Shown here: piece by piece, positions 18,158-61,104 of the stretch | How the letters are laid out: each line of letters starts with the position of its first letter | Numbering within the stretch: the stretch's first letter is position 1 | Assembly: GCA_021204405.1 (NCBI GenBank) | Contig: JAJPZJ010000169.1 | Coordinates: 1,647 to 65,646, forward strand | DNA: 64,000 bases | Source: Tannerellaceae bacterium | GTDB taxonomy: Bacteria > Bacteroidota > Bacteroidia > Bacteroidales > Tannerellaceae | Direction of reading: 5' to 3' | Program-made: the position numbers and the translations under genes | The notes under the pieces: model-generated | The model's database searches: none | What the model was told of the DNA's origin: nothing | The model's input: only the letters and a program-made list of their open reading frames with translations

Positions 18158-18527
18158 CCTGTTCCCCGCGCAGGCGGGGACCGCATCAGAACAGCCGGAA
18201 ATCTTCTATATTTTAGAACTGAAACAGGTAGTTTTAGTGCGATCCCCGCCTACGCGGCAGGGCTGTTAAATTCTTTTCTCTTCAGTCCTGCAAGGACGGC
18301 ATATCCTAGCCCGGTACGCAGTGCCGGGTGGTTGATATGGATCTTTTTTGAGTGCTGTAAGTACGGCATAAAATATACATGGGATCAAATTTCTATTATG
18401 TCGTACTTACAGCACTCCCACACTTATATTCCTAACTACCCAGGGCTGGTGCCCTGGGCTGGGATAGGACGTCCTTGCAGGACTACATATAGGAGAACTT
18501 AACAGTCCTACGCCTGCGCGGGTAACA
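18158..18527. repeat. family A REPIN-like element, copy A3, interrupted by family B copy B1
   Basis: The left arm CCTGTTCCCCGCGCAGGCGGGGACCGCATCAG starts at 18158. The right arm is split: GCGATCCCCGCCTACGCG (to 18256), then B1, then GCCTGCGCGGGTAACAAGG (18512-18530). Confidence 0.8.
18257..18511 (+). mobile_element. family B MITE, copy B1 (inverted relative to B2/B3)
   Basis: Termini are GCAGGGCTGTTAAATTC and GAACTTAACAGTCCTAC (inverted). Flanked by a 9-bp direct repeat, GCCTACGCG (18248-18256) and GCCTGCGCG (18512-18520). Nested hairpins inside. Confidence 0.8.
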
Positions 18528-19028
18528 AGGTCTTTTTATTCTTCCAGCAGTGCTTTATTTCAGCTTTTATGCGGATATACAACATACAAAGATTGAGGAT
18601 GGAAAAAATCACTGCAGTACAATACAAATGGAAAACAAGGGGTATAAGGGCAATCTCGGCTACCACGATCAGGTAGTTAGGATGTTTCAGGTATTTATAA
18701 GGGCCTTTTTTACCAACGGGGTATTGGGTATACGGTAGATCCTGGTGTTCCAGTATCTGCCCAGCGAACGGATGATCCAGATTTTTACCGCCAGCAATAG
18801 CAGGAACAGTTCGAATAACAGCATACTGCCCCGGGGTTCACCCCGCAGGAAATATTCTACGATCATCGCAAGGAAAAAACAAATATGCAGGATAACGATG
18901 AAGCGGTAATGGCTTTTGCCATATTCGACAGTACCTTGTTCTAATAGCCAGTGTTCATTTCGCTGTGAGATAACCAATTCGCCCAATCGTATGACAACAA
19001 GGAAAGAGATGTAAAACCAGAAGTTCAT
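18508..19028 (-). pseudogene. isoprenylcysteine carboxyl methyltransferase (ICMT) family protein, frameshifted
   Basis: MNFWFYISFLVV... multi-helix protein. The frame breaks at the T6 run 18706-18711. Adding one base gives ...PLVKKGPYKYLKHPNYLIVVAEIALIPLVF.... The last codons and the stop lie in repeat A3/B1 sequence. Confidence 0.7.
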
Positions 19029-19032
19029 ATGT

Positions 19033-20090
19033 TTATTCAATTTTTAATAAAGCCATTTCACACGAAAAACCAGGACCCATAGAGGCCATCAGGCTATATC
19101 CTGCCGCCGGCCGTTGTTCCAGAAAACGTTTTAACACATATAAAACGGTAGTACTTGACATATTGCCATAATCAGCCATTACTTCACGGGTTGCCTGCAG
19201 GAAATCGCCTTTTACCTCTAATGCCTGTTCATAGGCATCCAGTACTTTTCTCCCTCCCGGATGGAATATAAAGTAGTTAATATCCTGTAGGGTCAGGCCG
19301 CTCTTTTGCAGGAAAGAGGTAATATTTCTTTTACATGGTTCTCTATAATAGCGGGAATACCCGGCGAAAAGAGCACCTTAAAACCTCCGTCCATAAATTC
19401 CCATCCCATTATATCGAGTGTATCATAATACAGCCTGCTTTCGTTGGCAACAAATGCAACCGGCTGCCTGCATGGAACAGCAGCTTCATCGCCTGCTATC
19501 AGGCAGGCGGCTATCCCGTCGGAAAAAAGGGTAGTTTCAATAAAGTTGCTTTTACTATAATCGTTACGCATAAAGGTAAGCGAGCATAATTCTACCGCAA
19601 CCAGTAATACAACGGCACGGGGATTGGCAATAGCCAGGGTAGAGGCTTTCGCGTAGCCGGAAACTCCGCCGCCGCACCCAAGTCCGAAAATACTCATCCG
19701 GTTTGCTGTGGGGTTCAACCGCATTTTATTAATAATCAAGGCATCCAGTCCCGGAGTAGCCAGCCCGGTACTGGATACAAATACCACATCTGTTATAGCC
19801 TCTTTGGATAACCCGGCCGATGCGAGGCAGGCTTCAACAGCTTGTACCGAACAGGTAAGGGATATATCGATATAATCGAGGTTCCTGTCCCGGAAAGAAT
19901 GGGGCTGGTAATAATAGTCTAACGGTCTGCATAAGTTCCGCATCCGGATACCGGTATTATCAAATGCCGGTAACATCCTTTCTACTTCAGGAAATGAAGT
20001 AGCGAACATCCGGTTGGCATATGCTTTTATTTCCTGCTGCGGAACTTTAAAAGGAAGATCTATGGTAGCGATCGATGCTAATACAGGCAT
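19033..20090 (-). pseudogene. type III polyketide synthase (chalcone synthase-like), frameshifted
   Basis: Cys (GLGCGGG), His (FIFHPGG) and Asn (YGNMSS) triad regions are present. The frame breaks at the T4 run 19329-19332 (A4 on the coding strand). Adding one base gives ...ENHVKRNITSFLQKSGLTLQDINYFIFHPGGRKVLD.... Confidence 0.85.
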
Positions 20091-20285
20091 AGTTTCATTT
20101 TTTACGAATAATCAACAGAGATACAACTTTCTACCCGGCGATTTTACGGGAACAGGTATCTCACTTTGCTTTAATAAACAACCTGCGGAAATGAATAGTT
20201 TCAAAAATACTATAGAAAAATTTATCCGCCGGCTGGCTGGTAAAAGAAGTGTTTGTAATGATTCTGTTATCTCATCTTATTCCTG

Positions 20286-59416: not shown

Positions 59417-59446
59417 AGACTCTTACTATTAGTATTAAAAAAATTC

Positions 59447-60649
59447 TCAATATAAAAAGCCAAAAAGCCAAAGTGGGATGATATTCCCCTCACCTACTTC
59501 CACTTTATCAACCGCATAGTATAAGTTGGAATTGTTTTTCATTTTCATACTTTCCTTTATCCTGAAGTTAAACGTTCCGTTTACCAGGAAGTGGGCGTTT
59601 TTCATCCCTTCATTCAATGTGTTGTCTTTCATCAATTGGTTATAGAAAAAAACTTCACGTACCGATTGAGGATTTACTTCCGACGGCCGTATAGAGTACA
59701 TCAGATTTGGGTTATACATATATACGGTAGATGGTTTTTTCGGGAATGCTTCGCCTACCGGATATAGCATGCTCATCAGCCGTGCGTCTGCAAGATACTT
59801 AATATAATTCATAACCGTAGCACGGGAAGCCTCTATTTCTTTACTTAACTGACTCACATTGGGAGTACACGGGGCACTCATCGCCAGCAAATATAGTAAT
59901 TTACGTAATTTCGGTAAATAGCTTTGCTCAATCTGTTTGATATAAAGTACATCTACTTCGAGCATCATATTCATGGTTTTCAGCAGGTTTTCCGAAAAGT
60001 TGCGCTTTTCAAGGAAAAACGGGTAAAAGCCGTGATGCAGGTAGTCCTGGAAGTAGGCCAGCGGTTTAGCTGTAGAACAGATTTTGCGGGCGATTGCTTC
60101 GTGGTTTTGCATTACCTCCTTAAAGGTATAGGGCCGGAAGTCGTTACCTGACATCAGGTTGAGGAATTCACGGAATGAAAATCCACGCAGGTGATAGGAT
60201 ACTACCTTACCCGAAAGGTCGGAATTCTCCTCTTTTAGTCTCATTACGGATGATCCGAAAAATACAATTTTCAGATCAGTGAAATTATCGTAGCAATATC
60301 TGAGCTCTTTAGACCAATCCGGATATTTGAATACCTGGTCAATCAATAATACTTTCCCTCCTTTGACACGGAATTCGGATGCAAAATCAACTAATGTGCG
60401 TTTTGCAAAGTAGAAATGATTGAGGTTTACGTAGAGACATTTCTTATTGTCCGCACCAAAATATTCGCGGGCATAATCGAGTAAAAAGGTGGTTTTCCCT
60501 ACTCCGCGGGAGCCTTTTATACCGATCAACCTGTCATCCCAATTGATCTCATCCATCAGCCCACGACGCACCGGAGCATGGAGATGTTCAACAAGGTATT
60601 TATGTGTTTTAAAGAATGATTCCACGTGTTTTATTATTATCCTGGTCAC
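59447..60649 (-). CDS. AAA-family ATPase (AAA_14 / DUF4143-like)
   Basis: Walker A GSRGVGKTT and Walker B-like VLLIDQV. Intact 400 aa. Lies 30 nt upstream of the PFOR gene on the same strand. Confidence 0.75.
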   Translation of the reverse strand: MTRIIIKHVESFFKTHKYLVEHLHAPVRRGLMDEINWDDRLIGIKGSRGVGKTTFLLDYAREYFGADNKKCLYVNLNHFYFAKRTLVDFASEFRVKGGKVLLIDQVFKYPDWSKELRYCYDNFTDLKIVFFGSSVMRLKEENSDLSGKVVSYHLRGFSFREFLNLMSGNDFRPYTFKEVMQNHEAIARKICSTAKPLAYFQDYLHHGFYPFFLEKRNFSENLLKTMNMMLEVDVLYIKQIEQSYLPKLRKLLYLLAMSAPCTPNVSQLSKEIEASRATVMNYIKYLADARLMSMLYPVGEAFPKKPSTVYMYNPNLMYSIRPSEVNPQSVREVFFYNQLMKDNTLNEGMKNAHFLVNGTFNFRIKESMKMKNNSNLYYAVDKVEVGEGNIIPLWLFGFLY

Positions 60650-60840
60650 AATATAATAAATTAAGTTTAAAATTGCAATACCGAGATTACAATTTTAATA
60701 GGGAATTGTTAGAATAAAATTTGCAATTCGTTAGGAATGCCTATGGCTGGACGCGAGGATTGGCAATCAGAGTTACAAACCAAAGATATTTTTAAGCGGA
60801 TGACAGATCCTAATATTTAGCAGGCGGGATCAGAAGAGTA

Positions 60841-61104
60841 GTCGTGGTCAGAAGATTTTAATTAATTGACTCTGAACATTAAGTCCTGCAAGGACGGCCT
60901 ATTCTAGCCCAGGGCAAAGCCCTGGGTAGTAAGAATGTAATAATACCGGAGTGCTGTAGGCACGACATAAAAACATCATCGTACTAATTTTATTATGCCG
61001 TGCCTACAGCACTCAAAAAACTCAATATCAACAACCCGGCACTTCGTACCGGGCTAGGATAGGCCGTCCCTTCGGGACTTAAAAAATCTTCCGACCACGG
61101 CTGA
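60841..61104 (-). mobile_element. family B MITE-like element, copy B3 (longer variant)
   Basis: The core 60881-61080 has the same nested architecture as B2. Extended inverted flanks: GTCGTGGTCAGAAGATTTTA and AAAAAATCTTCCGACCACGGC. I could not identify a target-site duplication. Confidence 0.7.

Follow-up and report, generated by a model that had tools for sequence, protein, structure and literature searches.

Mirrored three-hairpin repeats in a Tannerellaceae genome as probable gene-less derivatives of a Y1 transposase unit

Introduction

Three related repeats of about 255–270 nt, B1, B2 and B3, lie about 21 kb apart in a 64,000-nt stretch of DNA from a Tannerellaceae bacterium (NCBI assembly GCA_021204405.1, contig JAJPZJ010000169.1, positions 1,647 to 65,646 of the forward strand; hereafter the window). 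An earlier note on this DNA had grouped them as family B, elements with several hairpins that stay paired while their sequences change, and the locus thus raises the question of whether they are RNA genes, regulatory palindromes or parts of something mobile. Family B is probably the gene-less derivative of a unit, mobile or domesticated, that centres on a 150-amino-acid HUH/Y1 transposase of the IS200 superfamily. On this reading, B1–B3 are the two ends of such a unit, joined by a loop of 36–44 nt at the place where relatives hold the gene, and are an analogue of the doublets of repetitive extragenic palindromic (REP) sequences known as REPINs, or of dimers of terminal inverted repeats (TIRs).

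A Y1 transposase gene between the halves of relatives

Each copy consists of two mirrored halves. Every half runs from a first 13-nt hairpin (a) through a linker to a GC-rich hairpin (b) and, past a spacer, to another 13-nt hairpin (c); at each end, three hairpins of 5, 8 and 5 bp are spread across about 95 nt (Table 1). In right-end orientation a half reads as the linker TTATGYCGT, c′, a non-conserved spacer of 25–30 nt, b′, the linker CTAGGATATRCCGT and a′.

A scan of species-representative genomes with an exact pattern from the element end gave 20 loci (cited by L numbers), 17 of them in one Tannerellaceae metagenome-assembled genome (MAG; JAJQAZ01, Tannerellaceae C.10_3) and three in other Bacteroidales. 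The window copies are not among them, which places the window genome outside that collection. At least 15 further copies are present in the MAG, with about 70% identity to those of the window. In L013 (Paludibacteraceae), a 150-amino-acid open reading frame (ORF) lies exactly between B-like left and right halves, and its product belongs to the Y1_Tnp family (PF01797, E = 4.6e-21, 75.6 bits; Pfam cut-off 23). Reading by eye gave the same gene-between-halves layout in three further loci fetched by protein identity, among them L021 (Aquipluma nitroreducens) and L024. The full layout comprises a-linker-b-spacer-c, about 25–30 nt, the gene from ATG to stop codon and then, within about 10 nt, c′-spacer-b′-linker-a′.

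A covariance model of one half, built from 31 halves, was used to search 80 metagenome loci chosen by protein similarity alone (56–79% identity). A plus-strand half is present in 69 of the 80, starting a median of 3 nt past the last sense codon, and a minus-strand half lies no more than 160 nt upstream of the ATG in 58; both flank the gene in 49 loci, and a contig end accounts for several of the exceptions. B-type dimers, left-loop-right and without a gene, lie beside Y1 genes in L027, L053, L056 and L090, and many of the 80 loci carry extra halves in tandem.

The surroundings of the Y1 units are themselves repetitive. Five or six half-elements in the same orientation, about 190–240 nt apart, are found beside Y1 genes in L074 (72–909), L089 (2455–3652) and L104 (339–1588); these arrays resemble clusters of bacterial interspersed mosaic elements (BIMEs), and simple doublet formation does not explain them. 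Remnants of a second unit adjoin the intact unit in L013 (4516–4613), L021 (2598–2814) and L024 (3598–3745), with a 3′ remnant of tnpA and a right end upstream, and a left end and a truncated tnpA start downstream. Their recurrence in unrelated taxa suggests repeated tandem insertion or duplication.

The Y1 protein has 892 homologues, of which the best 120 are nearly all 150 amino acids long and at least 70% identical, and its HuH (NHIH), WQ and YIENQKEHH motifs vary little or not at all among 14 homologues. Judged by these motifs only, it is assigned to TnpAY1 subclass 1.2, whose members have Y---Q--HH, WQ and [DN]H[IV]H, are about 148 amino acids long, come from Bacteroidetes or Cyanobacteria, and were reported without REPs, ends like those of an insertion sequence (IS) or IS properties (Quentin et al., 2018; PMC6006769, Table 1). 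The L013 protein reaches 47.7 bits with the NCBIfam IS200 equivalog NF033573, short of the cut-off of 55. IS608 TnpA is its only relative found by sequence in the PDB. A low-confidence AlphaFold model (pLDDT 63), used for ranking only, has IS200/IS605 TnpA proteins as its top 29 Foldseek matches, and the structure of a REP-associated tyrosine transposase (RAYT), 4er8, ranks 30th.

In the mechanism proposed here, the six short hairpins of a copy would form in single-stranded DNA (ssDNA) as signals for binding and cleavage by the Y1 enzyme, which would be supplied in trans to gene-less copies and may still be active today. The ends would be used in mirror image, the left read on one strand and the right on the other, like the pairs of REP and inverted REP (iREP) around RAYT genes.

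Anatomy of the window copies

The three copies lie within 1–3 nt of the positions first given for them, with B1 inverted, and are about 70–80% identical. Mean column identity is 72% over their alignment of about 255–270 nt; B3 and reverse-complemented B1 share 80% identity over the core (about 205 nt). B2 has about 70% identity to each of the other two and is the oldest copy or the most decayed. Since they are only 70–80% identical, the window copies are old. The 13-nt module GTCCTGCAAGGAC, allowing up to two mismatches, has eight matches at seven sites in the window (0.72 expected; eight reached in 0 of 100 shuffles), every one of them within B1–B3. No similar sequence was matched by blastn in annotated plasmids. 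A tRNA or tmRNA origin was rejected, the window being without such genes, and so was a large segmental duplication behind the spacing of the copies, as no long repeats join the three sites.

The hairpins named in the earlier note (CCCAGGGC-loop-GCCCTGGG and CCCRGCACTKCGTACYGGG) exist, as do the inner and outer inverted pairs and the copy-specific variants of the inner stem, in which module position 3 is A, C or G and the other arm is complementary. The terminal module of B3, GTCCC-TTC-GGGAC, is a genuine double change from T-A to C-G, but its loop is the 3-nt TTC and not, as had been read, TTCG. The hairpin feet read TTCG, AAGT or CGTC, and none reads GTAG. In L024 (2720–2800 and 2880–2960) and L022 (2735–2800), the loop of the b hairpin holds an extra 13-nt module (CCCAATGGCAACGTCCTGAAGGGACAACGCCTTGGG), which means that modules can nest within each other.

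The c arms match at 13/13, 12/13 and 13/13 positions in the three copies. The b arms match at 12 of 20 positions only and the spacers at about 30%, and in B1 and B3 the two b hairpins are unrelated inside (AGGGCACCAGCCCT versus GGTACGCAGTGCC), each being self-complementary. This low matching of b arms and spacers makes the element a set of six local hairpins and not one long palindrome. Folded whole, a copy has a four-way minimum-free-energy structure under RNA as well as DNA parameters (outer stem, GC hairpin, central hairpin and second GC hairpin), and the cloverleaf-like layout proposed earlier is to that extent found in the window copies. Its long-range pairs are not conserved across the family, and it is unsupported given that the relatives hold a gene between the inner arms and that b arms and spacers match so poorly.

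All three copies are intergenic, and their gene contexts are convergent, divergent and tandem, without a consistent orientation. One could take them for domesticated palindromes that the host, and not a transposase, maintains for a function such as terminating transcription, stabilising mRNA or binding nucleoid proteins, as has been proposed for REPs and BIMEs. This would account for the intergenic positions and for hairpins that are intact despite 20–30% divergence between copies. The Y1 family, too, has a low copy number and is well conserved (70–80% identity across families), which is reportedly the pattern of domesticated RAYTs. Yet no T-run follows the hairpins in B1–B3, which are therefore not intrinsic terminators, and B2 lies between divergent genes. 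A host function would also be compatible with a derivation from a Y1 unit; as an explanation in its own right it seems very unlikely.

Covariation, strand preference and the Rfam match

The paired state of the local hairpins is strongly conserved. In a MAFFT alignment of the 31 halves, 90.7% of the cells pair, against 28–51% in slid controls, and double changes occur at nine of 18 pairs; none of 500 shuffles reached the observed values. For 150 ends flanking Y1 genes, aligned by fit to the model, the figures are 94.5% against 10–55%, with double changes at 18 of 18 pairs and 45 additional pair types (again 0 of 500 shuffles); at one a′ pair, 86 sequences have GC, 43 have CG and 19 have UA. A comparison within units, independent of any alignment, gives the same picture: the stems of the left and right outer hairpins often differ, for example GCCAC/GTGGC versus GGGCT/AGCCC, and both fold with the same loop (L021 and many other loci). 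Selection for local hairpin folding is well supported, and the claim in the earlier note of selection on folded single strands is borne out by both sets of halves and by the differing stems. The additional claim that this selection goes beyond the needs of transposition is not supported, because the partner enzyme belongs to the HUH/Y1 class, which recognises ssDNA hairpins and whose transposition needs exactly these.

The asymmetry between A·C and G·T in ACGACAT and ATGCCGT that had been pointed out is present in all three copies and makes their bottom strand 11–17 kcal/mol more stable (RNA parameters). For whole elements this bias holds in the window copies and not in relatives (nine of 13 copies folded as RNA, seven of 13 as DNA), and what stands of the strand-specificity originally claimed is a bias per half. 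In the orientation of the Rfam family discussed below, the Tannerellaceae-dominated halves have 45 A·C mismatches and four G·T wobbles, so the strand complementary to that orientation pairs fully. On this strand, the loops of the 13-nt hairpins are GAA, GTA or GCA. GNA triloops form very stable DNA mini-hairpins. With DNA parameters, the complementary strand is the more stable in 24 of the 31 halves. Mirroring thus makes the top strand the favoured one in left halves and the bottom strand in right halves, and the ACGACAT/ATGCCGT wobble is a conserved left/right difference.

The a-linker-b part of family B matches RF01687 (Acido-Lenti-1) at both ends of a copy, in inverted orientation on opposite strands. 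The RF01687 model joins hairpins of 8 and 5 bp by a 12-nt linker and has a gathering threshold of 37 bits, and the comparison with Rfam covariance models that the earlier note had called for recovered it above this score at both ends of B1 and B3 (four matches in the window). The ends of B2 fall just below the threshold; two more matches, to the 3′ half of the model, come from the central hairpin of that copy. In relatives, RF01687 matches left ends on the minus strand and right ends on the plus strand, with 32–37 bits.

RF01687 is curated as a small RNA (sRNA) of Acidobacteria and Lentisphaerae of unknown function (Rfam), and the scores of B1 and B3 invite the proposal that family B, and Acido-Lenti-1 generally, is a structured sRNA gene or a cis-regulatory RNA. 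The very stable RNA folds of whole copies, with their favoured bottom strand in the window, would suit such a role, and the covariation is as compatible with RNA as with DNA. We nevertheless consider an RNA very improbable. The motif always occurs in mirrored pairs on opposite strands, and the opposite wobble bias of left and right halves argues against a single structured transcript, which could not satisfy both. The whole-element bias vanishes in relatives, the gene contexts are inconsistent in orientation, B1 and B2 have target-site duplications (TSDs) and interrupt another repeat, and the motif flanks a transposase gene in 58–69 of the 80 loci.

The outer shell and its targets

A second layer surrounds some of the copies. 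B1, B2 and at least eight copies of the MAG have an outer inverted repeat of about 25–35 bp that begins CAGGGCTGTTAAATTCT (CAGGG...). The outer inverted pair ascribed to all three window copies in the earlier note is thus real in B1 and B2, but that around B3, with 17-nt arms, is unrelated to it in sequence and is probably a pre-existing palindrome that hosts B3. With TIRs, a TSD, no ORF and multiple copies, B1 and B2 have the features of miniature inverted-repeat transposable elements (MITEs); B3 has neither shell nor TSD. The TSD of B1 is 11 bp long with 10 positions matching, and that of B2 9 bp with eight matching.

The flanks of B1, aligned to the four intact palindromic doublets of family A in the window, overlap by exactly 11 nt, CGCCTRCGCGG, which shows that B1 inserted into a family-A element with an 11-bp TSD. 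Family A consists of doublets of about 100 bp in which a REP-like hairpin is repeated in inverted orientation (GTTCCCCGCGCAGGCGGGGATCGCA ... TGCGATCCCCGCCTGCGCGGGGAAC). In the Tannerellaceae MAG, CCCC-N-GGGG hairpins similar to family A are the targets of shelled copies. Of the 10 shelled copies in window and MAG together, eight or nine have direct repeats of 8–11 bp, each between the CCCC and the GGGG of a REP-like hairpin. The shelled MAG copies L002, L003 and L005 are 93–96% identical, a sign of recent spread.

B3, L007, L014, L004, L010 and all autonomous units have neither shell nor TSD. In L004 and L010, unique sequence begins directly after ...CAGGACTTA. A search for TSDs in shell-less copies (B3, L007 and L014) or autonomous units exceeded the 95% control in two of 46 cases, which is chance level.

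The asymmetric centre of the core (c-loop-c′ and spacers) has one orientation relative to the asymmetric shell in L002, L003, L005, L008 and L011 and the opposite one in L016, L017, L018 and L001. These orientations fit either inversion by recombination between the perfect inverted ends of about 46 bp or insertion both ways.

The shell could suggest an ordinary MITE, dependent on a DDE insertion sequence whose enzyme recognises CAGGGCTGTTAA, with the hairpins of family B as palindromic binding sites for proteins in double-stranded TIRs and an incidental link to Y1. The CAGGG... TIRs and 8–11-bp TSDs of B1, B2 and at least eight Tannerellaceae copies speak for this, as does the recent amplification seen in L002, L003 and L005. 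The ends of the ISAs1 family presumably begin with CAGGG as well; the literature gave nothing usable on this point, and it is left as an unconfirmed lead. Against such an origin, shell and TSD are confined to part of the copies, whereas the three-hairpin core is the conserved part and tracks the Y1 gene in 69 of the 80 loci. The half-sites of a dimeric double-strand binder are not expected to tolerate many double changes in their stems, and no DDE transposase partner was found for the shell. A purely DDE-type MITE explains the shell and not the conserved core, and we regard it as quite improbable for the family as a whole.

On the reading of family B as a derivative of a Y1 unit, the shell of B1 and B2 would be a second layer that moves as a MITE, makes the 8–11-bp TSDs and lands in the CCCC-N-GGGG hairpins. 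It could be moved by a DDE transposase or, more speculatively, by symmetric Y1 nicking of a cruciform target. The second option can be taken further: units with a subclass 1.2 enzyme and mirrored three-hairpin ends might be a distinct type of HUH element that works on both strands of extruded palindromes, with the top strand used at the left end and the bottom strand at the right, and inserts at the apices of hairpins or cruciforms, such as terminators and REP-like hairpins, with the 11-bp TSDs of shelled copies arising from symmetric Y1 nicks on the CCCC-N-GGGG cruciform and no separate DDE enzyme. This would be the first TSD-making mode of HUH/Y1 transposition and would explain an orphan Rfam family across several phyla; it is an unlikely reading.

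Four of 45 units (L091, L056, L072 and L007) lie at the apex of long palindromes, far above mismatched-flank controls. Insertion into palindromes was rejected as a general rule, these being the only units with significantly inverted-repeat flanks, and is an occasional feature. A whole Y1 unit is nested at the apex of a 15–29-bp palindrome in L091 (595–1345), L056 (1870–2595) and L072 (1825–2580); the palindrome of L091 looks like a bidirectional intrinsic terminator.

Several points weigh against the derivation from a Y1 unit. Its main weakness is that no cognate Y1 gene was found for family B, whose enzyme may be lost: tblastn over the window and some 8 kb around each of the 17 Tannerellaceae loci detected none, and the b′ hairpin specific to family B (CCCAGCACTTCGTACTGGG) occurs in none of the 80 Y1 loci. 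We know of no biochemistry for subclass 1.2. Nor, to our knowledge, do Y1 transposases make target duplications, and mobility of the shell therefore needs another enzyme or another mechanism. The alignment of the 150 ends, being fitted to the model, leans towards the modelled pairs. A strong strand bias is confined to the Tannerellaceae set, in which many copies are related; across the wider family it weakens to 40 A·C mismatches and 20 G·T wobbles.

Comparison with known systems

Family B most resembles systems in which a short hairpin repeat accompanies a small HUH/Y1 gene. It shares with REPINs and REPtrons (RAYT = TnpAREP, class 2) the hairpin repeat in inverted pairs that flank one such gene, the dispersed intergenic doublets without a gene and the extra tandem copies near the gene, as in BIME clusters. 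It differs in having no GTAG/GTGG head, in its three hairpins per end instead of one REP, and in a partner closest to IS200-type TnpA, with the Y motif YIENQKEHH and not the YIxxNP of RAYTs; moreover, the gene-proximal hairpins c and c′ form the tip of the doublet in family B. A canonical REP or REPIN with a RAYT was rejected as an identity, since GT[AG]G is missing from the hairpin foot and YIxxNP from the protein.

The TIRtrons, with their TIRYT transposases, likewise have a Y1 gene between long inverted repeats with self-complementary tracts, and some of their TIRs form moderately abundant families as dimers or clusters (Di Nocera et al., 2013; PMC3733652). In some cases, a REP or TIR dimer lies inside a longer palindrome for which no empty counterpart was found (PMC3733652), which matches B3 and the shell of B1 and B2. 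That account differs from the present one in containing no Bacteroidia family, no three-hairpin ends and no link to Rfam, and the TIRYT group that it defines best comes from Acidobacteria. The same work describes CGTC-tagged REPs in Bacteroidetes, reported without a dedicated transposase, and the 13-nt modules of family B also begin with CGTC(C) in the Rfam orientation. Families 1–4 of these REPs have 8–9-bp stems with A/T at positions 1–2, loops of 4–5 nt and a CCA tail (PMC3733652). Membership was rejected on a comparison by description, the B modules having 5-bp stems, 3-nt loops and no CCA tail.

With IS200/IS605 elements and their gene-less derivatives, the palindrome-associated transposable elements (PATEs), family B shares the fold and catalytic motifs of the partner enzyme, subterminal DNA hairpins that are presumed recognition elements in family B, and a core without TSD. 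The ends of IS200/IS605 elements are not inverted repeats and have both hairpins on the same strand, whereas B ends are mirrored; the IS200 equivalog cut-off is missed as well, and subclass 1.2 is said to lack IS properties (Quentin et al., 2018). An IS200/IS605 insertion sequence or PATE was rejected for the mirrored ends, left on the minus and right on the plus strand, and for the missed NF033573 cut-off. Acido-Lenti-1 RNA (RF01687; Weinberg et al., 2010) coincides with the b-linker-a part of every B end. Here the motif comes from Bacteroidia, is invariably one of a mirrored pair, and makes up part of a larger end that has three hairpins and adjoins a transposase gene; it is the complement of the Rfam orientation that the wobble bias favours.

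Table 1. Positions of family B, its parts and its surroundings in the window.
Feature	Positions	Strand	Details
B1, complete composite copy	18258-18510	-	outer TIR shell and mirrored three-hairpin core; ends CAGGGCTGTTAAAT... and ...ACTTAACAGTCCTA
B1 TSD, left copy	18247-18257		CGCCTACGCGG; inside family-A REP-like hairpin
B1 right end	18285-18328	-	b′ 18310-18328, linker 18298-18309, a′ 13-nt hairpin 18285-18297
B1 right end, RF01687 match	18284-18328	-	39.9 bits (gathering score 37)
B1 inner modules	18352-18415	-	c′ 18352-18364, c 18403-18415, 38-nt central loop
B1 left end (element orientation)	18439-18484	+	b CCCAGGGC-loop-GCCCTGGG 18439-18458, linker, a 18471-18483
B1 left end, RF01687 match	18439-18484	+	44.1 bits
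B1 TSD, right copy	18511-18521		CGCCTGCGCGG
B2 TSD, left copy	39268-39276		CAATCTATC; 8/9 positions match 39545-39553
B2, composite copy	39278-39542	+	outer TIR shell degenerate
B2 left end	39308-39353	-	a 39309-39321, linker, b 39334-39353; RF01687 31.4 bits, below threshold
B2 inner modules	39376-39445	+	c 39376-39388, c′ 39433-39445, 44-nt loop; each is linker and 13-nt module
B2 inner modules, partial RF01687 matches	39421-39446; 39376-39399	+; -	
B2 right end	39472-39516	+	b′ 39472-39490, linker, a′ 39503-39515; RF01687 34.0 bits, below threshold
B2 TSD, right copy	39545-39553		AAATCTATC
Inverted pair around B3, left arm	60843-60859		CGTGGTCAGAAGATTTT
B3 core, naked	60880-61081	+	without CAGGG shell, without TSD
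B3 left end	60882-60926	-	a 60883-60895, linker, b 60908-60926; RF01687 47.2 bits
B3 inner modules	60951-61012	+	c 60951-60963, c′ 61000-61012, 36-nt loop
B3 right end	61035-61079	+	b′ 61035-61053, linker, a′ GTCCCTTCGGGAC 61066-61078; RF01687 40.2 bits
Inverted pair around B3, right arm	61083-61099		AAAATCTTCCGACCACG
Family A copies	7747-7849; 11951-12090; 18160-18257 + 18511-18543; 23861-23964; 52269-52388		

Other features of the window

Directly beside B3 and downstream of a riboflavin synthase gene, a long near-perfect hairpin (CTACTATACTACATTAAAAGCAGGCTTCG...CGAAGCCTGCTTTTAATGTAGTATAGTG, 61130–61190) is probably a terminator. Upstream of B1 and downstream of an alpha-amylase gene, a degenerate array of a 33-bp tandem repeat (17429–17574) has 4.4 copies with 71% matches, and perfect short tandem duplications occur at 9920–9977 (28 bp, two copies), 22887–22928 (21 bp, two copies) and 37547–37602 (28 bp, two copies). 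A 480-bp tandem duplication (49292–50255; 2.0 copies, 99% identical) lies within a SusC-like TonB-dependent receptor broken into two ORFs (49055–50347 and 50292–51695), and is either a real gene disruption or an assembly artefact. A polyphosphate kinase is split into adjacent ORFs (20860–21597 and 21607–22950), and a type III polyketide-synthase-like ORF (19293–20090) covers only part of its family profile; both could be pseudogenes or the result of sequencing frameshifts. An sRNA of the Bacteroidetes FopS family (RF04319, 75.6 bits) is encoded on the minus strand at 31330–31401 and supports an origin of the window in Bacteroidia.

Implications

Hairpin repeats tied to Y1 transposases are already well known, and family B involves no new principle. 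What appears to be new is the mirrored three-hairpin end, the link to subclass 1.2, the identification of Acido-Lenti-1 with such ends, and the nested, TSD-making shell that targets REP-like hairpins; no earlier account of these links was found in the literature beyond the papers of 2010, 2013 and 2018 and a preprint of 2026.

Judging from Bacteroidia, what Rfam lists as Acido-Lenti-1 is most likely no RNA gene but the end of a transposon. The motif is still cited as a possible regulator (2026 Tannerella pangenome preprint), and the reinterpretation should change the annotation of such matches in Bacteroidia genomes. The defined ends give Y1 subclass 1.2 candidate DNA substrates, for which binding and cleavage assays can be designed. 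Family B extends the REPIN and TIRtron idea to Bacteroidia with an unusually elaborate, covarying end of three hairpins, and in its nested arrangement a Y1-type core rides in a TSD-making TIR shell aimed at other REP-like hairpins.

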